NCBI GenBank assembly: GCA_944320495.1
Contig: CALUHR010000013.1
Coordinates: 487,931-551,930 of the forward strand
Origin: Candidatus Methanomethylophilaceae archaeon
GTDB lineage: Archaea; Thermoplasmatota; Thermoplasmata; Methanomassiliicoccales; Methanomethylophilaceae
Length of the DNA stretch: 64,000 nt
Reading direction: 5' to 3'
The position numbers were made by a program, and so were the translations under genes. Positions 13,054-56,239 of the stretch are shown in pieces. How positions within the stretch are numbered: the stretch's first letter is position 1; every line of letters begins with the position of its first letter. Below the pieces are notes generated by a model. The model did no database searches and was not told the DNA's origin. It was given only the letters and a program-made list of their open reading frames with translations.

Positions 13054-13281
13054 ATGCGGATGGTCATGGAATCCCCCTGCGTCGCGGTCACCGTCAACGG
13101 GAAGGTCATCGAGGTCCCTGAGGGGACGACGCTGGCGGATCTGCTGGGTTCCGAGGGGTACGACCGGTCCCGCATCGCGGTGGAGGTCGACGGGGACATC
13201 TGTCCCCGCGCGGATCTCGGCTCCCGTGTCATCAGAGGCGGTGAGACGGTCGAGGTCGTCTCCTTCGTCGGAGGCGGATGA
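13054..13281 (+). CDS. thiS: Sulfur carrier protein ThiS
   Basis: VTVNGK...IAVEVDG...[11 protein letters not shown]-terminus. Start could also be 13060 or 13066. Confidence 0.9.
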   Translation: MRMVMESPCVAVTVNGKVIEVPEGTTLADLLGSEGYDRSRIAVEVDGDICPRADLGSRVIRGGETVEVVSFVGGG

Positions 13282-13841
13282 TGGGCCGCGGCGTGCGCAT
13301 AGGGATCGCCGGGCTGGGTGGCATGGGCTCCAACGTGGCCGTTATGCTGGTCCGCTCCGGGTTCCGCGACCTCGTGGTGGCGGACTTCGACACGGTGGAC
13401 GAATCGAACATAGCCAGACAGGCGTATCTGCCGTGCCATCTGGGCATGTCCAAGACGGACGCTCTGGCATCCGTCCTGCACGACATCGATCCCGGGGCAT
13501 CGGTGGAGGTCCACGATACGAGGCTCGACGCCTCCAACGCCGCCGGGATATTCTCCGCATGCGACGTGGTGTGCGAGGCCCTGGACGACCCGGAGTCGAA
13601 GGCGATGCTCGTCGAGACCCTGCTGGAGGCCGGGTTCACGGTGGTCGCATGCTCCGGGATGGCCGGCGACGGGGATGCCAACTCCATAGTCACGCGCAGG
13701 GCGATGGGGCGTCTCTGGGTCTGCGGCGACGGGGTGTCCGACGTTGCGTCCGAGGGGAGGCTGAACGCCGCCCGCGTGTCCGTGTGCGCGGGTCACATGG
13801 CGCTTGCGGCCATGCATCTGGCACAGGGGGAGGAACCCCGA
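13278..13841 (+). CDS. thiF: ThiS adenylyltransferase ThiF
   Basis: [41 protein letters not shown] overlap with thiS. In-frame CGA at 13839-13841; canonical TGA at 13862. Confidence 0.85.
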
Positions 13842-14637: not shown

Positions 14638-15770
14638 GGGACCCCCTCCCATGGATGGAGGACATAGGAACAGACATCATGGACCGCGTCCTCGCCGCCC
14701 GCGAGGCTTACGATCCCTCATCGTACACCGAGTCGGACGTCCGCAGGGCGATGTGCGCCGAGCCGTCCGTCGAGGGATTCGCAGCGCTCCTGTCGCCGGC
14801 CGCGGAGCCTCTCCTCGAGGAGATCGCCGCACGTGCGAGGGAGGTCACCCGCGCGCACTTCGGGAACTCCGTCTGCATGTTCACCCCGCTGTACGTCTCC
14901 AACTACTGCATCAACGGATGCGTCTACTGCGGGTTCCACAAGGGGAACAGGATCGAGCGTCTCAAGCTCGGTCTGGACGACGTCGCCCGCGAGCTCGACG
15001 CCATCGCCGCCACCGGTCTGGAGGACATCCTCCTGCTCACAGGGGAGACCCACTCCGAGGAGGATGTGAGGTACGTCTGCGACTGTGTCTCCCTCGCCGC
15101 CGAGTGCTTCGCCGAGGTGGGCATCGAGGTCTTCCCGATGAACTCGGGAGACTACGCGAGGGTCCAGGCGGCAGGCGCCGACTACGTCACGGTGTTCCAG
15201 GAGACATATGACACCGGGAGGTACGACGAGCTCCATCCGTTCGGTCCCAAGTCCGTGTTCTCGTACAGGTTCAACGCCCAGGAGAGGGCGCTCATGGGAG
15301 GCATGCGCGGGGTGGCCTTCGGCGCCCTGCTGGGTCTGGCCGATTTCAGGAGGGACGCGTTCGCCTGCGGGCTCCACGCGATGGAGATACAGCGCAGATA
15401 TCCCGCCGCGGAGATCTCCATGTCGCTCCCGAGGCTGAGGCCGGCCGCTCACATGGACCAGTCCTCCGGCGTGAGCGAGGCCCAGCTCCTCCAGGTCTCC
15501 ATGGCGTACCGCCTGTTCCTGCCATATGCGGGGCAGACCATCTCCACCAGGGAGCGCCCCGGGTTCAGGGACGGGATCGTCGGGATATCGGCCACCAAGA
15601 TCTCGGCCGGGGTCAGCGTCGGCATCGGGGAGCACAGCGGGACGGGCCACGGCGAGGGCCAGTTCGTGATATCGGACCCGAGGGGCGTGGACGACGTGGT
15701 CTCGGCGCTGAGGTCCAACGGCCTCCAGCCCGTCATGGCCGACTATGTCCGCACGGGGCCCAGGGAATGA
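14634..15770 (+). CDS. thiH: 2-iminoacetate synthase ThiH (radical SAM)
   Basis: TTG start overlapping the thiG stop; [52 protein letters not shown]. Confidence 0.92.
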
Positions 15771-16348
15771 TCGCCGTCACGTCCCGCTCGCTGTGCGGGG
15801 AGCCGTTCCTGACGAGGGTCGCCAGGCTGGCCGAGGCCCGTCCGGAGATGATCATCCTGAGGGAGAAGGACCTCACGGAGGGCGAGTACCTGGCACTGGC
15901 GGCTGGATGCAAGCGCATCTGCGACCCTCTAGGCGTGCCTCTGGTCGTCAACCACTTCGTGTGGGTGGCCGGCATGCTGGGGATCAGAAGGATCCACCTG
16001 CCGATGCCGGACCTCCGCGAGGAGGACGTGTCGGGGTTCGACCTCGTGGGCGCGTCCGTGCACTCCGTGGAGGAGGCCAGGGAGGCCGTGTCGCTCGGGG
16101 CGGATTATCTCATAGCGGGGCACGTTTTCGGAACCGCCTGCAAGCCTACCGAGCCGAGGGGGCTCGGATTTCTTCGCGACGTCTGCTCGGCCGTGGACGT
16201 CCCCGTGTACGCCATCGGGGGCGTGGGCCCCGACAACTACCGGAGCGTCCTCGAGGCCGGTGCGCACGGCGCCGCGGTGATGTCGTCGGCCATGACCTGC
16301 GACGATCCCGAGGCTCTCGTTGACGCGATGCCCTCTCGCAAAGGTCGA
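15767..16348 (+). CDS. thiE: Thiamine phosphate synthase ThiE/TenI-like
   Basis: IILREKDL, IHLP, GASVHSVEEA, GADYLIAGHVFGTACK, VYAIGGV. In-frame CGA at 16346-16348; canonical TGA at 16366. Confidence 0.8.
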
Positions 16349-16372: not shown

Positions 16373-17008
16373 ATGGACGAGGCGACCTTCGACCGCGCCA
16401 AGGCATTCATCCGCGACCTCTTCGAGGGCGACAGCGGCGGTCACGACTACTGGCATTCGATTCGCGTCCACGACCTCGCCGTCTCCATCTGCGGCAGGGA
16501 GGGAGGCGACATGGACGTCGTCCGTCTGGCGGCGCTCCTGCACGATGCGGACGACCGCAAGCTCTTCGGACAGGGGAGCCGCAACGCCAGGGGATTCATG
16601 GACTCCGAGGGCATACCCTCAGACGTCCAGGACGAGGTCGTGGAGATCATATCGAAGATATCGTTCAAGGGAGCCGACACCGAGGTGCCCGCATCGCTGG
16701 AGGGGAGGATAGTCCAGGACGCCGACAGGCTGGACGCCATAGGTGCCGTCGGCATAGCCAGGGCCTTCGCCTACGGCGGGAGCAGGGGCCGTCCGATGCA
16801 CGATCCGGAGGTCCCGCCGTGCGAGGGCATGGGCGAGGCCGCCTACTTCGCCAATCGCGGGACGACGGTCAACCACTTCCACGAGAAGCTGCTCCTGCTG
16901 AAGGACATGATGAACACCCCGACCGCCCGCGCCATGGCGGAGTCCCGCCACCGCTACATGGAGGGCTTCCTGGAGGAGTTCCTGGACGAGTGGGAGGGCC
17001 GCAGGCGA
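16373..17008 (+). CDS. HD-domain phosphohydrolase (YedJ-like)
   Basis: GHDYWHSIRV, LAALLHDADD, VQDADRLDAIGAVGIARAFAYGG, HFHEKLL, FLDEWEG. CGA at 17006-17008 gives 211 aa; canonical stop at 17305. Confidence 0.85.
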
Positions 17009-20309: not shown

Positions 20310-20822
20310 ATGGAAGAGCGTCGGCATCTCGGCATGGAGGACATCCTCGGCCTGCTAAGGTCCAGAGGCATAGCATTCGAGGAGGCGCATCACCCTCCGG
20401 TGTTCACCATCGAGGAGATGCTGGAGCAGGATCTCCCGCATCCCGAGCTAATCGCCAAGAACCTGTTCCTGAGGGACGACAAGAAGCGCAGGTACTATCT
20501 CGTGGTCGCCAGGGAGGATCAGAGGGTGGACCTGAAGGCCCTCCGCACGGTCATCGGTTCCAGGCCCCTCAGCATGGCCTCCGAGGAGGACCTGATGTCG
20601 CACCTCGGGCTAACGCGCGGGTCCGTCACGCCGTTCGGCATACTCAACGACCCGGACCGTTCGGTGGACGTGGTGGTCGACTCCAGCTTCCGCGGGTCCC
20701 GCATGGGCGTCCATCCCAACGACAACATGTGCACCGTCTGGGTCGGCACGGAGGACCTGGAGTCGCTCATCTCGGACGGATGCGCGTCCTTCGCCTACGC
20801 GGACCTGCCCACATCCGACCGA
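20310..20822 (+). CDS. Prolyl-tRNA editing protein, YbaK/ProX family
   Basis: HPPVFTIEE, KNLFLRD, LSMASEE, GSVTPFGILND, HPNDN. In-frame CGA at 20820-20822; canonical TAA at 20858. Confidence 0.85.
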
Positions 20823-20867: not shown

Positions 20868-21956
20868 ATGCAGAAATCAAGGGCCGAGAGGCTCATGGAG
20901 AACGCCGAGGGCATGGACGCCGTCGTCATCGCGAACGACGGCGAGCCGTTCCTCGATTCGGCATTCTGGTACCTCACCGAGCAGACCTCCGGGACGTTCG
21001 AGGGTAGCTTCGCCATCGCCGGACCCGGCGGGAAGCTGGACGTCATCGTCAGCATCCTCGAGGAGGAGGGCGCCCGCCAGGGGGCGGGGGATGTGCACGT
21101 CTACCACACCGGGAAGGAGCGCGACGAGTTCATCCGCGAGGCGCTGAAGGGCTGCACCAAGGTCGGGTTCAACGTGAACAACGCCACGTACGCGGCCGTC
21201 GAGTACGTGAAGAAGGTCGCGGAGGGGATCGAGGTTGTCAACGCATCCGACGCCATCGGGGACACCGTCTCCGTGAAGGACGAGAAGGAGATCGCCGCCA
21301 CCCGCGAGGCTTGCAGGATATCGTCCATCGTCGCCGGGGAGATCCCGGACATGCTGTCCGAGGGCGTCACCGAGAAGCAGGTGGCCGCCAGGATGGACAA
21401 CAGGATGCGCGAGCTCGGCGGGACCGGGAACGCCTTCGACACCATCGCCGCGTTCGGCCCCTGGTCCTCTCAGCCCCACCACATGCCCTGCGACTACTCC
21501 CTGAGGAAGGGGGACACAGCCCTATTCGACTTCGGCACCAAGTACGACAGGTACTGCTCCGACATGACGAGGACCGTGTTCCTCGGAAGGCCCCCGGAAG
21601 TCCTCGAGAGGGCCTACGAGGTCGTCCTGGAGGCGCAGAGGGCCGGGATCGAGGCGTACCGCGCCGGGATCAAGGCGTGCGAACCGGACCTCGCGGCCAG
21701 GAAGGTCATCGACGAGTCCGAGTTCAAGGGGAAGTTCATCCACTCGTTCGGGCACGGCATCGGCATGGACGTGCACCAGCACATCTCCGTGTCTCCGAGG
21801 TCCGAGCAGATACTCAAGGCCGGCAACATCGTATCCGCCGAGCCCGGCGTGTACATACCCGGGGTCGGAGGCATAAGGATCGAGGACACGATACTCGTGA
21901 CCGAGGACGGATGCGAGGTGCTCACGTCCTTCGACCACTCGTTCACGGTGGTATGA
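20868..21956 (+). CDS. pepQ: Xaa-Pro dipeptidase/aminopeptidase (M24B)
   Basis: AFDTIAAFG, LFDFG, YCSDMTRT, HSFGHGIG, SAEPGVY, GIRIEDT. Confidence 0.88.
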   Translation: MQKSRAERLMENAEGMDAVVIANDGEPFLDSAFWYLTEQTSGTFEGSFAIAGPGGKLDVIVSILEEEGARQGAGDVHVYHTGKERDEFIREALKGCTKVGFNVNNATYAAVEYVKKVAEGIEVVNASDAIGDTVSVKDEKEIAATREACRISSIVAGEIPDMLSEGVTEKQVAARMDNRMRELGGTGNAFDTIAAFGPWSSQPHHMPCDYSLRKGDTALFDFGTKYDRYCSDMTRTVFLGRPPEVLERAYEVVLEAQRAGIEAYRAGIKACEPDLAARKVIDESEFKGKFIHSFGHGIGMDVHQHISVSPRSEQILKAGNIVSAEPGVYIPGVGGIRIEDTILVTEDGCEVLTSFDHSFTVV

Positions 21957-23362
21957 TGGAGGCGGTTCTGATGAGGGCCGAGGAGGCCCAGGACGTCCTC
22001 CACCAGGCCGTGGACCGTATGCGCGACCTCGGCGCCGTGTTCGCGGATGCCAGGTCCCAGACGGTCCGCGTCGCCGGGGCCACCACGATCAACGGCAACC
22101 TGAAGCAGCTGGTGGAGAAGAGCACGGGCGGCGTGTGCCTCAGGGCATGGGGAGGCTCCCGCTGGGGCTACGGAACCGCCACCTCCTTCGACAGGGACGC
22201 GGTCCTGAGGGCCGCAGAGGAGGCCGTCTCCAACTCGAGGGACGACTCCGCCGTCAGGCTGGACCTGGAGCCCGCGGTCTCCCGCGGGGACCACCGCGCG
22301 GACGTGAGGGTCCATCCCGACTCAGTCGACCTGGACGAGAAGATCCAGGCCGCGCTCGACCTGGACAGGGCCCAGGCGATCGACGACAGGGTCATCAACC
22401 GCACCGGGGCCTACTCCGAGGAGGTCAAGACCAACGCCCTCGTGAACTCCGCCGGCTCCGACGTGAGCTGGGAGGAGGTCCGCACCATCTGCCGCGCCAT
22501 GTCCATCGCGGCCGACGGCCAGAGGATGGAGCAGTACTACGACGGTCCGGACAGCACCCGCGGGTTCGAGGTCGTGAGGGACGCGGACCTGGAGGAGATA
22601 GGCAGGAACGCCGCCCGCGAGGCCATCGTCACGCTCTCCGCGGACCGCGCCCCGTCCGGCAACATGACCGTCATCTCCGACCCCATGGTCTCCGGCCTCC
22701 TGGCCCACGAGGCCATGGGACACGCGTCGGAGGGCGACGAGATCACCAAGAGGCGCTCGTTCCTTACGGACGCCGTCGGCAGGAAGGTCGCCTCCGATCT
22801 GATAACGATGTACGACGACGGCACGGTCCCCGGGGCGCACGGGTCCATACGCTTCGATGACGAGGGGACACCGGCGTCCAAGGTCACGATAATCGACCAC
22901 GGGGTCTACCAGGGCTACATGCACAGCCTCGAGACCGCCTCCCGCCTGGGGGTCCACCCAACCGGCAACGGCAGGGCGGAGAACGCCGGCAAGAGGGTCT
23001 GGGTCAGGATGACCAACACGTTCTTCGGACCGGGCGACTGGGACAGAGACGAGCTCATCGCCGACACGAAGGAGGGCATCCTCTGCGACAAGATGCTCAA
23101 CGGCATGGAGGACCCCGTGGGCGGATGCTTCGAGGCCAAGTGCCTGCGCGGATACCTGGTGAGGAACGGGGAGATAGTGAAGCCGGTGCAGTCGTTCACG
23201 CTCACGGGCAAGTCGATAGACATCCTGTCCTCGGTGGACGCCCTGTCCAAGGAGGTCCTCTTGGACGGGGGGATGTGCGGCAAGGGCATAGAGGACTGGG
23301 TCCGCGTATCGACGGGAGGCCCTTACATGCGCGCCAGGATGATCGTGGGGGGAGGCCAGTGA
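21956..23362 (+). CDS. tldD: TldD family metalloprotease
   Basis: TGATG overlap; LLAHEAMGHASEGD, FDDEGT, GNGRA, VRMTNT, GMCGKG, STGGP. Confidence 0.88.
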   Translation: MEAVLMRAEEAQDVLHQAVDRMRDLGAVFADARSQTVRVAGATTINGNLKQLVEKSTGGVCLRAWGGSRWGYGTATSFDRDAVLRAAEEAVSNSRDDSAVRLDLEPAVSRGDHRADVRVHPDSVDLDEKIQAALDLDRAQAIDDRVINRTGAYSEEVKTNALVNSAGSDVSWEEVRTICRAMSIAADGQRMEQYYDGPDSTRGFEVVRDADLEEIGRNAAREAIVTLSADRAPSGNMTVISDPMVSGLLAHEAMGHASEGDEITKRRSFLTDAVGRKVASDLITMYDDGTVPGAHGSIRFDDEGTPASKVTIIDHGVYQGYMHSLETASRLGVHPTGNGRAENAGKRVWVRMTNTFFGPGDWDRDELIADTKEGILCDKMLNGMEDPVGGCFEAKCLRGYLVRNGEIVKPVQSFTLTGKSIDILSSVDALSKEVLLDGGMCGKGIEDWVRVSTGGPYMRARMIVGGGQ

Positions 23363-36122: not shown

Positions 36123-36494
36123 TCATTCGGCCTTCTTCTCGGCCGGTTTCTCCCTTTCGGGGACGGTGAAGGTGTCGACGGTCTTCGTCGAATCCGGTGC
36201 CGTGTATCCAGGCGCCATGGACAGGCAGCTCTTGGGGCAGGAGTCGGCGCAGTAGGAGCACTGGATGCAGTCCATCCTGTCTATCGTCACCGTCCTCGAG
36301 GCCTTGTCGGCGCGGATGGCGCCCGTCGGACACTTCTTCCCGCAGATGTTGCACAGGATGCAGTCCGACGGATCGAACTCCAGGTGGCCGCGGCTCGCCG
36401 AGGGATATTCCCTCGGGGCGGCTGGGTAGGCCTCCGTCGCAGGCTTGTGGAACAGGTTGGACCACAGCTTCCCGCTCGCTTTGAGGACGCCCAT
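36123..36494 (-). CDS. echF: Ech hydrogenase 2x[4Fe-4S] subunit F
   Basis: CILCNICGKKCP and CIQCSYCADSCP; last gene of the operon. Confidence 0.88.
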   Translation of the reverse strand: MGVLKASGKLWSNLFHKPATEAYPAAPREYPSASRGHLEFDPSDCILCNICGKKCPTGAIRADKASRTVTIDRMDCIQCSYCADSCPKSCLSMAPGYTAPDSTKTVDTFTVPEREKPAEKKAE

Positions 36495-36498
36495 GATA

Positions 36499-37578
36499 TC
36501 ACCGCTCCGTGCAGCTGATGCAGGGGTCGATGGTGATGATGATCATCGATACATCCTGCATGCCGCATCCCTGCAGCATCCTGGTCATCGTCGGGATGTT
36601 GATGTTCGTCGGGGTCCTGACCCTGGCGCGGTCAAGGAACTTGGTCCCGTTGCCCTTCACATAGTAGTACGCCTCGCCGCGAGGCTGCTCCACCCTGAAG
36701 GCGAACTGTCCCGCGGGCGGATTGCCCTTGACTGGGACGCGCCACTCGCCCTCCGGCAGGTCACCGAGGGCCTTCCTGATCAGCTCTATGGACTGGGAGA
36801 CCTCGTCCACGCGGACCTTGCACCGGGCGTAGCAGTCACCCTCATCATAGAGGATGGGTTCGAACCCGAGGGCCTGATAGGCCTCGTCCGCGCTGCGGGC
36901 GTCGTTGTCCACGCCGGATCCGCGGGCGGTCGGTCCGACCCCGCAGAGCTCCACCATCTCGTCCTTGGAGATCTGACCGACCCCGATGAGCCTGTTCCTG
37001 ACCGACGAGTCCAGGAAGAACACCCTGCGGACCCAGTCCATCTCCTTCTCCACCTCGTCGCACACCTTCAGGATCATGGAGATGTGCTCGGGGGTGAGGT
37101 CGCAGGCGACGCCGCCGATCCTGCAGTAGGAGACGATGACCCTGCCGCCTGTGACGGTCTCGAAGACGTCGAGGACCTTCTCGCGGATCCTCCAGCACTG
37201 CATGAACAGGCTGTCGAAGCCCATGCCGTCGGCGAGGAGGCCGAGCCACAGCAGATGGCTGTGGACCCTGGAGAGCTCGTGGAACACCACCCTCAGGACC
37301 TTGGCCCTGTCCGGCACCTCCACGCCCATCAGCCCCTCGACGGCGTTGACGTAGCCGTAACCGTGGCCCATGCTGCAGATTCCGCAGACCCTCTCCATGA
37401 TGTAGGTCATCTGCTGGTAGTCGCGAGTCTCCACGAGCTTCTCCAGACCGCGATGGACGTACCCGATGGACGGCACCGCTCTGACCACGGTCTCGCCGTC
37501 GAGCTCCAGGTCCAGATGCACCGGCTCCGGGAGGGCGGGATGCTGTGGGCCGAACGGGACTATCGTTCTCTTTCCCAT
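36499..37578 (-). CDS. echE: Ech [NiFe] hydrogenase large subunit E
   Basis: PFGPQHPAL, YVHRGLEK, ERVCGICS, EQPRGE, IDPCISCTER. Confidence 0.93.
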   Translation of the reverse strand: MGKRTIVPFGPQHPALPEPVHLDLELDGETVVRAVPSIGYVHRGLEKLVETRDYQQMTYIMERVCGICSMGHGYGYVNAVEGLMGVEVPDRAKVLRVVFHELSRVHSHLLWLGLLADGMGFDSLFMQCWRIREKVLDVFETVTGGRVIVSYCRIGGVACDLTPEHISMILKVCDEVEKEMDWVRRVFFLDSSVRNRLIGVGQISKDEMVELCGVGPTARGSGVDNDARSADEAYQALGFEPILYDEGDCYARCKVRVDEVSQSIELIRKALGDLPEGEWRVPVKGNPPAGQFAFRVEQPRGEAYYYVKGNGTKFLDRARVRTPTNINIPTMTRMLQGCGMQDVSMIIITIDPCISCTER

Positions 37579-37940
37579 CGCTCCGCCTCCTTCGCCTCAG
37601 GCCCCTTCCAAGGGGTTTTGGTGCTGGTCCTGAAGAAGTTACCCTTGTAGTCGAGTTGACTGTCCTCGAACTCCACGTCGAACAGGTCGTGGATCTCGTT
37701 CTCGTAGACGAACGCCGCCCAGTATGTCGGCGTGATGCTCTTGACCACCGTGCCGAACGGGACGGTCACGTTGTAGTTCACCAAGGAATGGTCCTTGTCG
37801 AAGCTGTACACGAGCTCGGTGGACCCCTCGCCCGTTATCCCGCAGATCTGCACCATGCGGTAGCCCTCGGCCTTCAGCTCCTCGGCCTTGCCGGGGACGG
37901 CCTCGGGGCTCAGCTTCTTGAACCTCTGCTCCTGGAACAT
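37578..37940 (-). CDS. echD: Ech subunit D (NuoC-like)
   Basis: ELVYSF, SITPTYWAAFVYENEIHDLF. CGA at 37580-37578 overlaps the echE ATG; canonical TAG at 37560. Confidence 0.85.
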
Positions 37941-38374
37941 CGCTTCTCCCCCTCCATCTTGGCGCGCTTCTCCTCGAGGACGGCGACGCCCTTCACTATG
38001 CCGTCTATTATCGATTCCGGCCGGGCGGCGCATCCGGGGACGTAGACGTCCACCGGGATGACCTTGTCCGCCCCGCCCAGTATGTTGTAGCAGTCGCGGA
38101 AGATCCCGCCGCTGCAGGCGCATATGCCCACGGCGACGACGACCTTCGGCTCTGGCATCTGGTCGTATAGCTGCCTCACGACCTCCTTGTTCTGGTCGTT
38201 GACGGCTCCGGTGATCAGGAAGATGTCCGCCTGCTTCGGGTCCCCAGTGTTGATGACCCCGAACCGCTCGGCGTCATAGATCGGGGTGAGACAGGCCAGC
38301 ACTTCTATGTCGCACCCGTTGCAGCTGGATGCGTCGTAATGCAGTATCCACGGTGACTTCGATGTGCAGCTCAT
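37940..38374 (-). CDS. echC: Ech small subunit C (NuoB-like)
   Basis: SSCNGCDIE, VVAVGICACSGG, VYVPGCAARPESI. CGA at 37942-37940 overlaps the echD ATG; canonical stop at 37910. Confidence 0.9.
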
Positions 38375-39258
38375 GCTATCACCAGCAGCGCGATGATGTT
38401 GCCCATGCCGAGGACCAGGGAGACGATCCATCCGCTCTTCAGGGCGGTCTGCCACTTCATGCGGGCGAATCCGTTGTCGATCCAGATCTCCAGGATGTAG
38501 GCGAGGACCGCCACGACGGCGCCGATCACGACACCCGTCCATTCACCGTTCTGGAAAAACAGCGCCACCATGCCCAGGAGCATGATATTCTCGTACCAGT
38601 GAGAGACCTCCATCATCGCATAGGTGCGACCGGAGAACTCGGTGGCGACCCCGCGGACTATGTCCTGATGGGCGTGATGGGACATGCTGAGGTCGAACGG
38701 CGACTTCCTGAGCTTCATGGTGAGGATGAACAGGAATCCGAGGAAGATCCCAAGCATGGGGAGGATCGCCATGTCGCCGAATCCAGCTATGTCCCTGACG
38801 GCGAACGAGCCGCCGTCCTCCCCTCCGGTGAACAGGTAGTAGGCAACGGCCATAATCAGAATCATCGGCTCGTAGGCCATGGCGACGTAGATCTCCCTCT
38901 GGGCCCCGACCTGTGCGAACGGGGATCCGGAGCAGTACGCCGCCAGGACCAGGAACGTCTCGCCCAGCGTCAGGGTGAAGACGATCAGCAGCAGGTCCAT
39001 GCCCGCGAAGAACATGGCCCCAGTGACGACTATCCAGAACAGGTAGCACGCCACATAGAAGTCCTGGACGCGGTTGGACGTCCTGCGCTCCTTGGCGAGC
39101 AGCTTGCGGACGTCGTACAGGGGCTGCATGACGGGCGGTCCCTGCCTGCCCTGCATCCTGGCGGAGATCTTCCTGTCGATACCGGCGAGGATGCATCCGG
39201 CGACAGGCGCCAGAGCAACGAAGATCACGGCGAACAGCAGGAGTGTCCAGTTGCTCAT
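38371..39258 (-). CDS. echB: Ech membrane subunit B (NuoH-like)
   Basis: GIDRKISARMQGRQGPPVMQPLYDVRKLL, KSPFDLS, HQDIVRG. Confidence 0.9.
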   Translation of the reverse strand: MSNWTLLLFAVIFVALAPVAGCILAGIDRKISARMQGRQGPPVMQPLYDVRKLLAKERRTSNRVQDFYVACYLFWIVVTGAMFFAGMDLLLIVFTLTLGETFLVLAAYCSGSPFAQVGAQREIYVAMAYEPMILIMAVAYYLFTGGEDGGSFAVRDIAGFGDMAILPMLGIFLGFLFILTMKLRKSPFDLSMSHHAHQDIVRGVATEFSGRTYAMMEVSHWYENIMLLGMVALFFQNGEWTGVVIGAVVAVLAYILEIWIDNGFARMKWQTALKSGWIVSLVLGMGNIIALLVIA

Positions 39259-41174
39259 CGCAGCCACCCCCCGCAGGCCAGGACGATGCAGGCGACGATG
39301 ACGACCGCGGTCACGGCCTCCCCGACCTTCCTTATCCTGTCCTCGCCGAACCAGTCCTCCATGTACCAGTTCCTGAGAGTCACGTTCACCGGTGCCCCCA
39401 TGGACCCGGTGTAGCTCAGGTCGTCGATGTTGACTCCGGACATGTAGTTGGGCACCTCCTTTGTTTTGGATCTGCCGAAGAACGGCACGAAGATCAGCAC
39501 CAGCGCGACCAGCATTATCAGCAGGAGGTACAGGTTGTTGGTCTCCATCAGGGCCAGGTCCGCGTGCTCGGGGAAGAATGCGATGTCCATCCACGGCACC
39601 ACGAGCCAGTCGGAGAGCAGCGGATAGCCAAGGCAGACGATGACCACGAGGGCGGCCAGCGATCCGAGCACGGTCCACTCCTGAGGCCTGACGGTGTCCT
39701 CGATGTCCTTCGCATCCCTGACCACGCACGCGAGCTTGCCGAGCCACTTGGTCCAGTAGAACCCGGTGACGGCGCTCCCGAACGCGATGCACGCGACGAG
39801 GATGACGCTCATGGCCTCCTCGGTGTCGACGAAGGCAGTCAGGGCGGCCCACTTGGATATCAGCATGCCGAACGGCACCAGGAACATGGCCGCTATGCCG
39901 AGCATCATGATCAAGGCGAGCTTGGGCATGCGGGCGAACAGCCCGTCCATGTCCTCTATGTTCCTGCTGCCTATGTGATGCTCCGCGGTCCCGACGCAGA
40001 GGAAGAGCAGGGACTTGGTGATCGCGTGGAACACCATCAGCATGACGCCTGCCCAGGCGGCCTCCGGTGTGCCGACCCCGGCGCACGCGACGATGAGGCC
40101 CAGGTTGGCTATGGTCGAATAGGCCAGCACGCGCTTGGCGTTGCTCTGGGATATGGCGGCCATCGATGCCAGGAGGAATGTCAGTCCTCCGACGGCCATG
40201 ACCATGTCGCCTCCGATGTTCCCGTAGAGCAGGGGCGACAGCTTGAGCAGCATGAACACCCCGGCCTTGACCATGGTGGACGAGTGCAGCAGCGCGGATG
40301 TGGGCGTAGGCGCGACCATCGCTCCGAGCAGCCACGTGTGGAACGGCATCTGGGCGGACTTCACGATGCCCGCCAGGGCCATCAGCATGACCGCCACGAG
40401 CAGCCAGTCCGCGACGAGGGCGTCGGGTGTCGCCAGGAGCCTGTCCAGGGCGAGGAAGCCTTCCTGGTCGGCCAGGAGGATCAGCGCCGCGAGGAACGCT
40501 ATGCCTCCGATCAGGTTCAGGATCAGCTGGCGGAACGAGTTGTTGACCGCCTCCTCCGTCCTGGTGAATCCGATGAGGGCGAAGGAGCACAGTGTCGTTA
40601 TCTCCCAGAAGAAGAACATCCATACGAGGTTGTTCGACAGGACGACGCCGTACATGGCGCTGAGGAAGACGAACAGCAGGAAGAAGAACCAGCGCCTGCG
40701 GTCCTTCTCGTCGGCGTGATGCTCCTGGAAGTCCCTCATGTAGCCCACGGCGTACACGCAGATCAGGCTACCGATGATTCCGATGATCAGGATCATCACG
40801 ATGCTCAGGTCATCGATGTAGAGCCCGTTCTCGACCTCGATGCCTTCCTTGAAGACGAATTCGAAGCAGACGGACATCACCAGCTGCACCAGTCCGAGGA
40901 CCGATGCGATCGGCTTCTTGTGTTTGATACCTAGATAGATGATGACCAGGCCCAGGATCGCCTCTATGGCGAACATGAGCAGGTCGATGGACTCCCCCGA
41001 GACCTCGAACGTCTGAGGATCGCCGTGATAGTTCCAAGCCACCCAGATGGAGGTTGCGATGATCAGGGCGGCGCCGATATAGGATATCGGACCCCTGGCC
41101 CTGTCGTTCTTCACCACCAGGAGGATGCATGCGACGATGAATGGGATGACCATCATCAGCAGTATGTCGTTCAT
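39255..41174 (-). CDS. echA: Ech membrane subunit A (NuoL/MrpA-like)
   Basis: FFWEITTLCSF, KSAQMPFHTWLLGAMVAPTPTSALLHSSTMVKAGV, KRVLAYST, FHAITKSLLFL. Ends CGA-TGA over the echB ATG. GTG 41180 is an alternative start. Confidence 0.9.
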   Translation of the reverse strand: MNDILLMMVIPFIVACILLVVKNDRARGPISYIGAALIIATSIWVAWNYHGDPQTFEVSGESIDLLMFAIEAILGLVIIYLGIKHKKPIASVLGLVQLVMSVCFEFVFKEGIEVENGLYIDDLSIVMILIIGIIGSLICVYAVGYMRDFQEHHADEKDRRRWFFFLLFVFLSAMYGVVLSNNLVWMFFFWEITTLCSFALIGFTRTEEAVNNSFRQLILNLIGGIAFLAALILLADQEGFLALDRLLATPDALVADWLLVAVMLMALAGIVKSAQMPFHTWLLGAMVAPTPTSALLHSSTMVKAGVFMLLKLSPLLYGNIGGDMVMAVGGLTFLLASMAAISQSNAKRVLAYSTIANLGLIVACAGVGTPEAAWAGVMLMVFHAITKSLLFLCVGTAEHHIGSRNIEDMDGLFARMPKLALIMMLGIAAMFLVPFGMLISKWAALTAFVDTEEAMSVILVACIAFGSAVTGFYWTKWLGKLACVVRDAKDIEDTVRPQEWTVLGSLAALVVIVCLGYPLLSDWLVVPWMDIAFFPEHADLALMETNNLYLLLIMLVALVLIFVPFFGRSKTKEVPNYMSGVNIDDLSYTGSMGAPVNVTLRNWYMEDWFGEDRIRKVGEAVTAVVIVACIVLACGGWLR

Positions 41175-42075: not shown

Positions 42076-43407
42076 ATGGATGTCTGTGTCGGCCGCGAGG
42101 AGGAGCTCTGCTATCTGAACGACCTGTGGGAGAAGGTCCCCGTGTCGTGTGCGGTGTGCGGGCGCCGCCATCTGGGCAAGACAACCCTGCTGAAGGAGTT
42201 CACCAAGGACAAGCCCTTCATCTACATCACCGGCACCGAAGGCCTCCGTTCCGACAATCTCGAGGAGATCAACCGCGCCCTCTCGAAGTTCAGCGGTGAG
42301 CAGGAGAGGATAACGGACGTCATCGACCTGTTCCCCCGCATCAAGAAGATCTGCGGCAAGCGCAAGGCCGTCGTGATAATCGACAGGCTCAGCGACCTGG
42401 TGGACAACTTCGACGAGATAAACGCGTACATCCGCGGCTTCATGAGCAGGGAGCTCGGGAACACCAGGATCATGCTGGTGGTCTGCGACAACGACAGCTC
42501 CGTCTTCGGGCGCTTCTACTACACCCTGGAGCTGAAGCCTATGAGCTACATCGACTGCAAGGGATTCCATCCGAGCTACACCCCGATCCAGCACCTGAAG
42601 GCGTACGCCATGGTCGGGGGCACCCCGGCGTACCAGCACCTGTTCGGCGACATGGATCCCGATGAGGTGATCCGCAAGCAGATGTTCTACCACATGTCGG
42701 TGTTCTCCCTCGAGGCGGAGGGCATGGTCGCATCCGAGACGATAGCCCCCAACAGCTGTACGAAGGTCCTGTCCGCGATAGCCGGCGGGGCAGAGAGCAT
42801 TCGCGAGATCTCGTCGCGCACGGGAATGAGCTCGTCTTTCTGCACCAAGGTCGTGGAGGACATGGAGCACAAGGGGATCCTCCAGAAGGAGGTCTCGTCA
42901 GGCATGTCCCGCAGGGCGGTGTACTCGATCAACAGCAACATCATCCGCTTCTACTACCAGGTGGTCCATCGTTACACCCACATGGTCGAGTTCGAATCCC
43001 CCCAGAAGGCCTACGAGGAGGCGAGGGAGGACATAGACCGCTACATGGAGAACGCGTTCAAGACGGTCTGCATGGAGTACGTGACCCGGAGCTTCGACTA
43101 CAAGTTCGTGGGCAGACTCAGGAAGTGGGACGACAGCGTCGACAAGGTCATCGACTTCCTGGCGTCGGTGAACGTCAACAGGTCCGAGAAGGTCCTCATC
43201 GCCAGGTGCAGGCTCTACGGCGCCCCGTTCGGGGAGAGGGAGCTGGAGGAGCTCATGGAGAGGGCGAAGAAGGTGGAGGGGTCCTCGCACAAGGTCTACC
43301 TGATGTTCTCAGGCACCGGATTCACGCCGGAGCTCGTCAAGGCCGCCCACAACATGGGCGAGAGGGTGAGGCTGCTCACGCTGGCCGACATCTACGGTGA
43401 CCGTTGA
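42076..43407 (+). CDS. Archaeal ATPase (COG1672-like) with wHTH and C-terminal nuclease-like domain
   Basis: VGREEEL, GRRHLGKT Walker A, VGGTPAY, central HTH, C-terminal DFLA...LIARC...YLMFSGTGFT. Confidence 0.75.
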   Translation: MDVCVGREEELCYLNDLWEKVPVSCAVCGRRHLGKTTLLKEFTKDKPFIYITGTEGLRSDNLEEINRALSKFSGEQERITDVIDLFPRIKKICGKRKAVVIIDRLSDLVDNFDEINAYIRGFMSRELGNTRIMLVVCDNDSSVFGRFYYTLELKPMSYIDCKGFHPSYTPIQHLKAYAMVGGTPAYQHLFGDMDPDEVIRKQMFYHMSVFSLEAEGMVASETIAPNSCTKVLSAIAGGAESIREISSRTGMSSSFCTKVVEDMEHKGILQKEVSSGMSRRAVYSINSNIIRFYYQVVHRYTHMVEFESPQKAYEEAREDIDRYMENAFKTVCMEYVTRSFDYKFVGRLRKWDDSVDKVIDFLASVNVNRSEKVLIARCRLYGAPFGERELEELMERAKKVEGSSHKVYLMFSGTGFTPELVKAAHNMGERVRLLTLADIYGDR

Positions 43408-44906
43408 TGAGGACGGTCCTCGCCATAGACGCGGGAACCACCAGCATCCGCGCCATGCTGTTCGGCACAGGCGGGGAGGTCCTCGCCGTGTCCCAGAGGC
43501 CGCTCAGGCAGATCTACCCCGAGCCGGGCATGGTGGAGCACGATCCGTCGGAGATATGGGTGCTGTGCCGTGAGACCGTGAGGGATGTCCTGTCCAGGCC
43601 GGGAGTGGAACCCTCGTCGTGTGCCGCGTTCGCGGTGACGAACCAGAGGGAGACGGCGGTCGCCTGGGACCGCGACACCGGGTCCCCGCTGTGCAACGCC
43701 ATCGTTTGGCAGGACAGGAGGACGTCGGGATTCTGCGACGGCCTCTCCTCGAAGGGGCTGGATGGCGAGATATACCGCAGGACGGGGCTCCATGTGGATC
43801 CCTACTTCTCCGGGACCAAGTTCCGCTGGATGCTCGACCATGTGCCTGCGGTGCGCGAGAGGGCGGCGTCAGGGAGGCTCGCCCTGGGCACCGTGGACTC
43901 GTGGATCGTCTGGAAGCTCACAGGGGGCCGCGTGCACGCGACGGATCATTCGAACGCGTCCCGCACCATGCTCATGGACATCCGTGCCCTCGAATGGGAT
44001 CCCGATTTTGCGGAGATCCTGGGGGTTCCGATGGATGCCCTGCCCGAGATCCGCCCCACGGGGTGCTTGTTCGGGACCACCGATCCCGCCGAGGTGGGCG
44101 TGTCGGTGCCCATAGCCGGGTCCATCGGGGACCAGCAGGCCGCCCTGTTCGGCCAGCAGTGCACATCCGACGGAGATGTGAAGGTCACGTTCGGCACCGG
44201 CGGGTTCATGCTGATGAACGCAGGGGCCATGGCCCCAGTGTCCTCGAACGGGCTCCTCACCACCGTGGCATGGACCCACGGGGGCAGACCGGTCTATGCG
44301 GTCGAGGGCTCGGTGTACATAGCGGGGGCGGCGATCCAGTGGCTCAGGGACGAGCTCCAGATCGTGGAGGCCTCCGCGGAGACGGAGAGGATGGCGACGA
44401 GCGTCCAGGACACGGGAGGATGCACCCTGGTGCCCGCCTTCACCGGGCTCGGCGCGCCGCACTGGGATCCAGGTGCCCGCGGAATGATAATGGGGCTGAC
44501 CAGGGGGACCAACAGGAACCATCTGGCCAGGGCTGCTCTCGAATCGATAGCGTTCCAGGCGTGCGACGTGGTCCGTGCCATGTCCTCTGACACGGGGAAA
44601 CGCGTGGCCGAGGTGAAGGTCGACGGAGGGGCCAGCGCCAACGGTTTCCTCTGCCAGTTCATGGCGGACATATCGGGCACCAGGGTCCTGAGGCCGAAGG
44701 TCATAGAGTCCACCGCTCTCGGCGCCGCCTATCAGGCCGGGCTGACCGTGGGGCTGTGGTCGTCGGAGGACGATCTGAGAGGCAACTGGGTCCTGGATCG
44801 GGAGTTCGTGCCTTCGATGTCCGAGGACGAGCGCCTCCGTCGCCTGGATTCCTGGTCCAAGGCCGTGGAATGCGCCAAGGCCTGGTCCCGCATCTGCGGA
44901 GACTGA
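43407..44906 (+). CDS. glpK: Glycerol kinase
   Basis: AIDAGTTSIRA, VEHDP, TNQRET, NAIVWQDRRT, DPYFSGTK, TDHSNASRT, GDQQAALFGQ, APHWDP, VDGGASAN. TGATG overlap. Confidence 0.92.
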   Translation: MRTVLAIDAGTTSIRAMLFGTGGEVLAVSQRPLRQIYPEPGMVEHDPSEIWVLCRETVRDVLSRPGVEPSSCAAFAVTNQRETAVAWDRDTGSPLCNAIVWQDRRTSGFCDGLSSKGLDGEIYRRTGLHVDPYFSGTKFRWMLDHVPAVRERAASGRLALGTVDSWIVWKLTGGRVHATDHSNASRTMLMDIRALEWDPDFAEILGVPMDALPEIRPTGCLFGTTDPAEVGVSVPIAGSIGDQQAALFGQQCTSDGDVKVTFGTGGFMLMNAGAMAPVSSNGLLTTVAWTHGGRPVYAVEGSVYIAGAAIQWLRDELQIVEASAETERMATSVQDTGGCTLVPAFTGLGAPHWDPGARGMIMGLTRGTNRNHLARAALESIAFQACDVVRAMSSDTGKRVAEVKVDGGASANGFLCQFMADISGTRVLRPKVIESTALGAAYQAGLTVGLWSSEDDLRGNWVLDREFVPSMSEDERLRRLDSWSKAVECAKAWSRICGD

Positions 44907-54991: not shown

Positions 54992-55219
54992 TGATTTCCT
55001 CCAGGCTGGCATCGTGCCGTCGAGTTATAACCGTGATGGCCTGTCCGGGAGGTCGGGAGCAAGCCTCCGTCCCTTTCGCGGGGACGTCCGTCGGGGACCG
55101 CGGGTCCTGGGTCACACCCAGTTCCCGGGGAAACCCGCGAGCGGCGCCGTGCGCGCGCCCGTCGCATCCCGACGCTAACCCTAATAAACGTCACGGCGAT
55201 GGCCGAGCCAGGTTATTCC

Positions 55220-56239
55220 ATGGCTAAGGTCAGGGTTGGAGTCAACGGTTACGGCACTATAGGCAAGAGGGTGGCCACGGCCATCGCCAAGCAGGACGAC
55301 ATGGAGCTCGTGGGCGTCACCAAGACCAGGCCCAACTACGAGGCTCTGGACGCGCTCTCGAAAGGATACGGCCTCTACATCCCCGAGGAGAGCGTCGAGG
55401 CCTTCGAGAAGGCCGGCGTGAAATATTCCGGCACCATCAAGGACATGCTCGGCAAGGTCGACATCGTCGTCGACTGCACCCCCGGCAACGTCGGGGAGTA
55501 CTATAGGGACATGTACAAGGCCGCCGGCGTCAAGGCCATCTTCCAGGGCGGGGAGGAGCACAGCCTCACGGGCATTTCATTCAACTCCACCGCCAACTAC
55601 GCGGAGTCCTGGGGTGCGCCCATGTCCAGGGTCGTCTCCTGCAACACCACCGCTCTCCTGAGGACCCTCTATCCCATCGACAAGGCGCTCCGCATCAAGA
55701 ACGCCTACGTCACGATCGTCAGACGCGCGGCGGATCCCGGCGACAGCAAGGGCGGCCCCATCAACGGCCTCGAGCCCTCCGTCAAGCTCCCCACGCACCA
55801 CGGCCCCGATGTGCAGAGCGTCATGCCCTGGCTCAACATCAACACCATGGCTGTGAAGGCGTCCACGACCCTCATGCATGTGCAGACGGTCGTCGCCCAG
55901 CTCTCCCAGCAGACCACCACCGAGGAGGTCCTGGACATCCTGAGGCAGGCCCCCAGGGTCAGGCTCGTGAAGAGCTCGGACGGTATCAAGTCCACCCCGC
56001 AGATCATGGAGCTGGCCCGCGACCTCGGCCGCGACCGCTCCGACATGTACGAGATCGTCGTCTGGGAGGACGGCTTCAAGGTCGTCGGCGACACGCTGTA
56101 CTACTACCAGGCGGTTCACCAGGAGTCCGACGTTGTGCCGGAGAATGTGGACTGCATCAGGTCCATGTGCAAGATGATCCAGGATCCAGCGGAGTCGGTC
56201 GCCAAGACGAACGCCTCCATGGGTATCGGGAAGAACCGA
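55220..56239 (+). CDS. gap: Glyceraldehyde-3-phosphate dehydrogenase (archaeal type II)
   Basis: VGVNGYGTIGKRVA, VVSCNTT, THHGPDV, HQESDVVPENVDCIR, KTNASMGI. CGA at 56237-56239 gives 339 aa; canonical stop at 56545 lies inside pgk. Confidence 0.93.

Follow-up and report, generated by a model that had tools for sequence, protein, structure and literature searches.

Introduction

A change of meaning from sense to stop is known for codons of organelle genomes, where AGA and AGG (vertebrate mitochondria, translation table 2), TCA (Scenedesmus, table 22) and TTA (Thraustochytrium, table 23) have become terminators, and a release-factor gene may carry a termination codon within its own frame, as does bacterial prfB, in which an in-frame UGA with a +1 frameshift autoregulates the release factor. 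In this study, we have explored a 64,000-nucleotide stretch (hereafter the window) of contig CALUHR010000013.1 from a Candidatus Methanomethylophilaceae archaeon, in which an operon for a group-4 (Ech-type) [NiFe] hydrogenase has CGATG in place of a TGATG stop/start overlap at three gene junctions, together with the whole genome to which it belongs. Judged from the sequence, it is very probable that CGA serves throughout this genome as a fourth, probably weaker, termination codon, and that the CGATG junctions of the ech operon act like TGATG.

The described systems that come closest are of different kinds. Genetic code 34, in which all TAG codons specify pyrrolysine, has been reported for Methanomethylophilus and other archaea (bioRxiv 10.1101/2024.09.30.615893). 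In two hydrothermal-vent archaea that read CGG as tryptophan, known domains lack CGA, and the possibility that this codon means stop was raised (bioRxiv 10.64898/2026.04.02.715157). In yeast, eRF1/eRF3 detectably releases at CGA, in competition with tRNA-Arg(UCG), and UGA-biased eRF1 variants (L123R/F/Y) enhance this release (PMC7379694). Our literature search found no paper establishing a sense-to-stop change outside organelles, and one preprint that raises CGA as a stop.

CGA and the end of coding signal across the genome

The genome under study (G000) is that of a gut methanogen in the genus that holds Ca. Methanoprimaticola (1.77-Mb assembly, 61.6% GC). Along 1048 confidently coding open reading frames (ORFs), the decile profile of CGA runs 224-115-37-23-6-8-15-29-70-242, an 18-fold enrichment at the end, with the next codon at 3-fold. 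The GC content of third codon positions (GC3) is 0.84-0.88 through the codon before a late CGA and 0.51-0.61 right after it, in CGATG and in other contexts alike. When in-frame and off-frame occurrences are compared, CGA (log-odds -6.8) falls between TGA (-7.8) and TAG (-6.6), followed by TAA (-4.9), and the next sense codon stands at -3.6; in absolute terms, CGA was found in frame at 5 of 145,753 central codons, as against 35 per 1000 triplets off frame. Among genes with coding signal up to their end, the terminators are 738 TGA, 193 CGA, 26 TAA and 10 TAG, and a looser count gives 216 CGA ends in 1329 ORFs, so that the share of genes ending on CGA is about 16-20% (about 190-215 genes). The tails that translation table 11 adds behind CGA have a median length of 21 codons, 81 of them having at least 30 codons and 33 at least 100, and they are without coding signal.

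Comparison with relatives, each sampled over about 180-200 kb, leads in the same direction. Relative to Ca. Methanoprimaticola sp. MG2 (G078), the nearest named relative and the closest one sampled, 11 of 13 CGA ends are aligned with a stop, as are 36 of 42 TGA ends; relative to G070, the figure for CGA ends is 8 of 18. In 42 alignments, one CGG and no other arginine codon stood opposite a CGA end. The view that CGA occupies stop positions, and that coding signal ends there, is thus well supported by these comparisons of sequence. Termination at CGA had been proposed in a sequence-only reading of the window, from the ech junctions, and the genome-wide statistics speak for it by placing the end of coding at this codon. 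One artefact might mimic the pattern, namely a frameshift error behind which the nearest CGA out of frame is met. It was rejected, because GC3 remains high until CGA is reached and falls only beyond it; the trait also recurs in independent assemblies.

Coding signal flanks no more than five CGA codons on either side: codon 78 of the gene for the release factor aRF1, two or three same-frame gene junctions, and one further case. At C13:193617-194700 (minus strand), good coding signal lies before and behind an in-frame CGA (codon 186 of 361), after which no start is obvious; the AVFIDRDD motif just behind presumably corresponds to the N-terminus of a HAD phosphatase, and this CGA may be a real read-through or fusion, or may precede a missed start.

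The Pelota gene (C1:21187-22227; L001:1486-2526) illustrates the consequences of reading CGA as a stop. It ends ...ILRYRL on CGA, its usual C-terminus, and its table-11 frame continues for 425 codons, via a spacer, into a same-frame gene resembling homocitrate/isopropylmalate synthases. In the window itself, seven more genes outside the ech operon end on CGA with coding signal up to that codon, among them a GAPDH-like gene (Table 1). We take the lengths of Pelota and GAPDH up to CGA to be normal for these proteins. For eight genes of the window that end on CGA, the limits of the Pfam domains agree with an end at this codon, though they are too coarse to fix the C-termini.

The junctions of the ech operon

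By its Pfam and NCBIfam matches, the six-gene operon on the minus strand encodes NuoL-, NuoH-, NuoB-, NuoC-, NuoD- and NuoI-like subunits, and both nickel-ligand CxxC motifs are kept in the translation of EchE (RVCGICSMGH and DPCISCTER). Across about 2000 codons of the operon, there are only three in-frame CGA codons up to and including the gene ends proposed here, every one at a junction, a placement that is more than chance. The sequence-only reading had described these CGA codons, at echA/echB, echC/echD and echD/echE, as each lending its A to the next ATG, with the same 1-nt geometry as the TGATG overlaps at 21954-21958 and 43405-43409 of the window; on re-reading the sequence, we found the three junctions and both comparison overlaps as described. 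The 1-nt stop/start overlap is present at 39260-39256, 37942-37938 and 37580-37576, provided that CGA terminates.

In detail, echA ends CTG-CGA-TGA, with CTG as its last sense codon (39263-39261), CGA at 39260-39258 and the table-11 TGA at 39257-39255; the ATG of echB (39258-39256) has its A in common with this CGA. The end of echB is GCA-TGA, an ordinary ATGA overlap with echC. The end of echC is AAG-CGA-TG, with CGA at 37942-37940 and the ATG of echD at 37940-37938; under table 11, echC would continue for 10 codons to a TGA (37912-37910) and overlap echD by 32 nt. Similarly, echD ends GAG-CGA-TG (CGA 37580-37578), and the ATG of echE (37578-37576), which shares its A with that CGA, has GGAGG 9-13 nt upstream; under table 11, echD would be 6 codons longer, up to a TAG (37562-37560), with a 19-nt overlap with echE and a second in-frame CGA within the tail (37565-37563). 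The ech ATGs are preceded by GGAGG or GGGGAG as Shine-Dalgarno motif. The table-11 tail of echD is probably untranslated, and so, probably, is that of echC in this genome.

CGATG junctions are not confined to this operon. We scanned the genome for sites at which a run of 40 strongly coding codons in one frame adjoins a second such run, also of 40 codons, that opens with an ATG. The scan yielded 36 TGATG junctions, 119 ATGA overlaps and 54 apparent long overlaps, in which the table-11 frame of the upstream gene extends beyond the ATG. In 31 of these 54, the codon across the ATG is CGA, and these junctions would have table-11 overlaps of up to 97 codons; the list includes two of the three ech sites and the window site 11555. 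A Shine-Dalgarno-like motif precedes 29 of the 31 CGATG junctions (94%), compared with 83% at TGATG. The idea that CGATG is a mere preferred start context was rejected, as the ATGA overlaps, our control for the NNA codon, have CGA there in just 10 of 119.

Table 1. Genes of the ech operon, their table-11 tails, and further genes of the window that end on CGA (window positions)
Feature	Description	Coordinates	Strand	Remarks
echA	NuoL-like membrane subunit	39258..41174	-	Pfam Proton_antipo_M/N
echB	NuoH-like	38371..39258	-	Pfam NADHdh
echC	NuoB-like small subunit, 144 aa, C-terminus MEGEK	37940..38374	-	Pfam Oxidored_q6, residues 18-128
echC table-11 tail	CSRSRGSRS + TGA	37910..37939	-	within echD, other frame
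echD	NuoC-like, 120 aa, C-terminus AKEAE	37578..37940	-	Pfam Complex1_30kDa
echD table-11 tail	WERER + TAG	37560..37577	-	within echE
echE	[NiFe] large subunit, NuoD-like	36499..37578	-	Pfam Complex1_49kDa + NiFeSe_Hases; CxxC at both ends
echF	2x[4Fe-4S] ferredoxin subunit, NuoI-like, last operon gene	36123..36494	-	Pfam Fer4_7; ordinary TGA
GAPDH-like		55199-56239	+	CGA end; table-11 overlap with next gene 296 nt
CCA-adding enzyme		51544-50150	-	CGA end
HD-domain protein		16373-17008	+	CGA end
ThiF-family protein		13278-13841	+	CGA end
TMP-TENI protein	thiamine phosphate synthase	15767-16348	+	CGA end
tRNA_edit-domain protein		20310-20822	+	CGA end
Formyl transferase		12380-11553	-	CGA end, CGATG junction

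Orthologous junctions in relatives

The ech operon was compared in 15 family genomes, 7 of them of the same genus, and in 5 public records; the compared loci include one (L202) from a near-identical metagenome-assembled genome. At echD/echE, TGA stands at or adjoining the CGA column in 15 of 15 family genomes and in 17 distinct relatives overall, 10 of them as TGATG, and in one congener the end reads KEAE-TGA-TG where KEAE-CGA-TG is found here. CGA occurs at this junction in three more genomes, namely L202, L211 (as CGA-CGA-TG) and L213 (as CGA-T-ATG), and under table 11 the echD frame of L213 would reach 671 nt into echE. The extension RWERER shows no conservation at the protein level, the 17 relatives stopping there. 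At echA/echB, the same column holds GGW-x-TGA-TG in L205 and G031, and GGW-x-CGA-TG with no adjoining TGA in L211 and L213. Since the column is TGATG or CGATG in relatives, the echA CGA of this genome also lies at a stop column, and the TGA that adjoins it is a by-product of the second codon of echB. The sequence-only reading had anticipated TGATG at these positions in related genomes, and for echD/echE and echA/echB this is what we see, TGATG (or again CGATG) lying at the same alignment column. It is well supported by these alignments that both junctions are orthologous to TGATG junctions.

For echC/echD, the same expectation held in part. In 15 of 18 distinct relatives, a stop lies 0-2 codons off the CGA column (MAFFT alignment), mostly in an NNA-TGA, GTGA or TTGA overlap; MG2 and L213, in contrast, carry the tail to the downstream TGA, and in these two relatives an echC tail as long as the table-11 one here is accordingly translated. 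In a hand comparison of the echC-tail stretch with MG2, substitutions are mostly synonymous in the frame of echD and non-synonymous in that of echC, and the resemblance of the tails is for this reason probably imposed by echD.

In MG2 (L004 / L207), the position of the echD ATG of the other genomes is occupied by ACG, and an in-frame CGA precedes it, in the echD frame. Translation of echD in MG2 probably begins ten codons further on, at a TTG that forms a TTGA overlap with echC. Read in the frame of echD, the codons bypassed in this way nevertheless look conserved.

A number of archaeal ech contigs (L203, L204, L206, L208-L210, L212 and L214; EchE 77-79% identity) are deposited in public bins labelled bacterial, with labels that include Bifidobacteriaceae, Bacteroides ovatus, Prevotella hominis and Dialister hominis. 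These contigs are probably binning contaminants from gut metagenomes.

An altered tRNA-Arg(UCG) and a release factor with its own CGA

The tRNA-Arg(UCG) gene of this genome lies at C13:413317-413390 (L103). Its 31-39 pair is mismatched, as it is in 8 of 8 genomes of the genus (the other loci being L104-L107, L130, L132 and L137): C.A in six, U.C in MG2 and A.A here, where positions 32 and 38 have changed too. Among the 45 tRNAs of this genome, only tRNA-Arg(UCG) has a 31-39 mismatch, and in other genera of the family the pair is kept. Going by the sequence, the broken pair may weaken this tRNA.

The genome has a single aRF1, together with Pelota. The aRF1 gene (C2:85936-87165; L002:682-1911, minus strand) contains one in-frame CGA, at codon 78, which corresponds to a conserved arginine. 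An in-frame CGA at a conserved arginine was present in all 30 family aRF1 genes extracted (loci L033-L062, 19 genera), although CGA usage is 0-0.14 per 1000 codons in most of the genomes of those genes. Within the genus it occupies position 78 (8 of 8 genomes), and elsewhere in the family position 11, 25 or 122/123. The CGA of aRF1 is in this genus always followed by C, as opposed to the T that is preferred at gene ends. The release factor may thus be under feedback control through its own CGA codon.

Changes in aRF1 that could account for release at CGA were also considered. We take L126 of human eRF1 to correspond to L123 of yeast (a numbering offset). By alignment to human eRF1, together with this offset, the aRF1 of the family has arginine (YRC) at the yeast L123 position, and the aRF1 of Aeropyrum has arginine at the same YxC position. 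Arginine at this position as the sole cause was rejected, since it is found in Aeropyrum aRF1 too; it would be at most a predisposition. The yeast study does not place L123 in the YxCxxxF motif (PMC7379694). A change in the GT(S) loop of the aRF1 of this genome (RGRST in place of RGRGT) was likewise rejected as the cause, the other genomes of the genus with CGA ends keeping GT.

Arginine codon, edited codon or stop

Some of our observations weigh against CGA as a stop, and these are best set beside the possibility that the standard code holds, CGA being a rare arginine codon, the 32-nt and 19-nt overlaps in the ech operon being true ones, and the CGA ends being relics of TGA-to-CGA stop loss that left short, tolerated extensions. 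Each genome of the genus, and the family throughout, has a gene for tRNA-Arg(UCG). The aRF1 gene requires CGA to be arginine; aRF1 is made only if this codon is read through, which rules out CGA as a pure stop. In its decoding motifs (NIKS and YxCxxxF), aRF1 of this genus does not differ from that of genera without CGA ends. In the ech operon, the TGA of echA follows directly on CGA, so that both readings are functionally alike at echA/echB. The echC/echD junction appears weaker and could not carry the claim alone: in MG2 and L213, the echC frame has neither stop nor CGA there and ends at the same TGA as the table-11 stop here, which means that the echC tail could also exist as protein in this genome, should CGA at times be read as arginine. 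The ech tails are also short (10 and 6 codons), and CGA ends are commoner in those congeneric genomes that have a higher GC content, as well as in genes of weak codon bias, which fits mutation pressure.

The standard code, however, has to accommodate the 81 tails of at least 30 codons and the 33 of at least 100, some of which enter the next gene in frame (Pelota with its 425 additional codons), as well as the 296-nt overlap behind GAPDH and the 671-nt overlap that echD and echE would have in L213. It would also leave the tails as translated sequence without coding signal, and it gives no place to a sense codon that is as rare inside genes as true stops. We consider it very unlikely that CGA is simply a rare arginine codon. 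Because the tRNA-Arg(UCG) gene remains and aRF1 needs one CGA as arginine, CGA is probably a competed, context-dependent stop and not a clean one.

CGA is one C-to-U change away from TGA, and mRNA editing might turn CGA into UGA, with the standard code applying to the edited message. Editing of CGA to UGA that creates stops occurs in plant organelles, and the tests run here do not separate editing from a direct reading of CGA. We know of no mRNA C-to-U editing in archaea. With CGA at 35 per 1000 off-frame triplets, the editor would have to be frame-aware or would introduce many missense changes, and the CGA of aRF1 would need to escape it. In addition, the genus-wide change in the anticodon stem of tRNA-Arg(UCG) and the conserved CGA of aRF1 point to the decoding step. 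Editing has, in our judgement, a slim chance of being the explanation, and we prefer to regard CGA itself as the terminator.

Context, codon bias and distribution of CGA ends

The base that follows a terminal CGA is T in 58% of cases and A in 4%, compared with T in 23% after CGA genome-wide, and a terminal CGA is often followed by TCG or TG. CGA ends become scarcer as codon bias grows, with a share of 36% of genes in its lowest quartile and 5% in its highest. Such a gradient agrees with a weaker or slower terminator, spreading through TGA-to-CGA drift under weak selection.

Ending genes on CGA is characteristic of this genus. In six sampled congeners, 0.6, 2, 3, 4, 6 and 7% of sampled genes end on CGA, as against 16-20% here, with MG2 at about 7%, and within the genus the share roughly rises with GC content. 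Four sampled genera make almost no use of in-frame CGA, and a fifth uses it at a low level. CGG apparently still serves as a sense codon here (about 1.4 per 1000 codons).

Most of the family avoids CGA within genes, genera without CGA ends included. This avoidance, together with a tRNA that looks weakened and the depletion of CGA ends in strongly codon-biased genes (5% vs 36%), would also suit another explanation, namely that CGA is effectively unassigned, a 'hungry' codon at which ribosomes stall and are dealt with by a rescue pathway, the CGA of a junction being mainly a pause that aids loading of the next ATG. About one gene in five, including those for Pelota itself, GAPDH and the Ech subunits, would then rely on rescue for its normal product, and Pelota has, to our knowledge, no peptide-release motif. 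Moreover, eRF1 of yeast can itself release at CGA (PMC7379694). An unassigned CGA seems to us highly improbable when set beside a CGA that terminates.

A gene for PylS is present at C9:67854-68522 (L200; 261 bits, cut-off 178), and among genes whose coding signal extends to the stop, TAG is the terminator in only about 1%. With PylS present and TAG hardly a terminator, the genome matches the code reported for the family, in which all TAG is pyrrolysine. Several table-11 TAG stops, that of echD included, lie behind a CGA.

Discussion

If CGA terminates as we propose, it would no longer be an ordinary arginine codon in this archaeon. From the sequence data, we infer that the single aRF1 is most likely the reader of CGA, competing there with the tRNA-Arg(UCG) that has a broken 31-39 pair, that CGA is weaker than TGA and favoured before U, and that termination is coupled to re-initiation. 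In the ech operon, the ribosome would release EchA, EchC (...MEGEK) and EchD (...AKEAE) at CGA, and it could then begin translating the following gene at the ATG to which that A also belongs, aided by the Shine-Dalgarno motif just upstream. A fuller scenario would combine a fourth stop with preference for CGA-U, a UGA-biased aRF1 acting against the tRNA-Arg(UCG) that the genus retains with its 31-39 pair broken, an aRF1 level that sets itself through CGA-C, GC pressure that converts TGA to CGA, and termination-reinitiation at CGATG. As a whole, this scenario is possible, and we put it forward tentatively, with somewhat less than even confidence. If true, it would represent a complete and still-evolving codon capture in a free-living archaeon, with a regulatory circuit visible in the genome.

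Sense-to-stop changes have been established only in a few organelle genomes; here, such a change would be found in a cellular organism, with intermediate stages among close relatives, CGA ends ranging within one genus from <1% to about 16-20% of genes. The mechanism is made testable by a tRNA that is altered but kept, by the in-frame CGA of the release-factor gene, and by junctions that are TGATG in one species and CGATG in another. For annotation, table 11 would produce false C-terminal tails, fusions and long overlaps in about a fifth of the proteins, including EchC, EchD, Pelota and GAPDH.

How does this compare with known systems? One likeness is to the sense-to-stop changes of organelles, in which the codon vanishes from coding positions and appears at gene ends, and AGA and AGG are likewise arginine codons. 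There are clear differences, as we are dealing here with a free-living (gut) archaeon, a 1.8-Mb genome and about 200 genes, and as the cognate tRNA is kept next to one release factor with canonical motifs. Code 34 belongs to the same family of archaea and is a change from stop to sense, in a report that does not mention CGA (bioRxiv 10.1101/2024.09.30.615893). The vent archaea belong to another lineage; they lack tRNA(UCG) and have CGG reassigned, and no analysis of gene ends was made for them, whereas CGG apparently still serves as a sense codon here (bioRxiv 10.64898/2026.04.02.715157). Misdecoding by yeast eRF1, the sole precedent for recognition of CGA by a release factor, involves the same codon, the same family of release factors and the same competition with tRNA-Arg(UCG), but it is a weak side reaction at rare codons, while release at CGA would here routinely end 16-20% of genes (Wada and Ito 2018, PMC7379694).

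The TGATG and ATGA overlaps of prokaryotic operons have the geometry seen at the ech junctions, the last base of the terminator being the first base of the next ATG. The Shine-Dalgarno frequency upstream is the same here, and the orthologous junctions of relatives are TGATG; the difference is that the codon in the overlap here is CGA, to which all published prokaryotic codes give a sense meaning, and that coupling is deduced from sequence. Finally, the aRF1 gene resembles prfB in carrying in frame the very codon in question. Autoregulation of prfB works by a frameshift, whereas any feedback in aRF1 would need readthrough by a tRNA.

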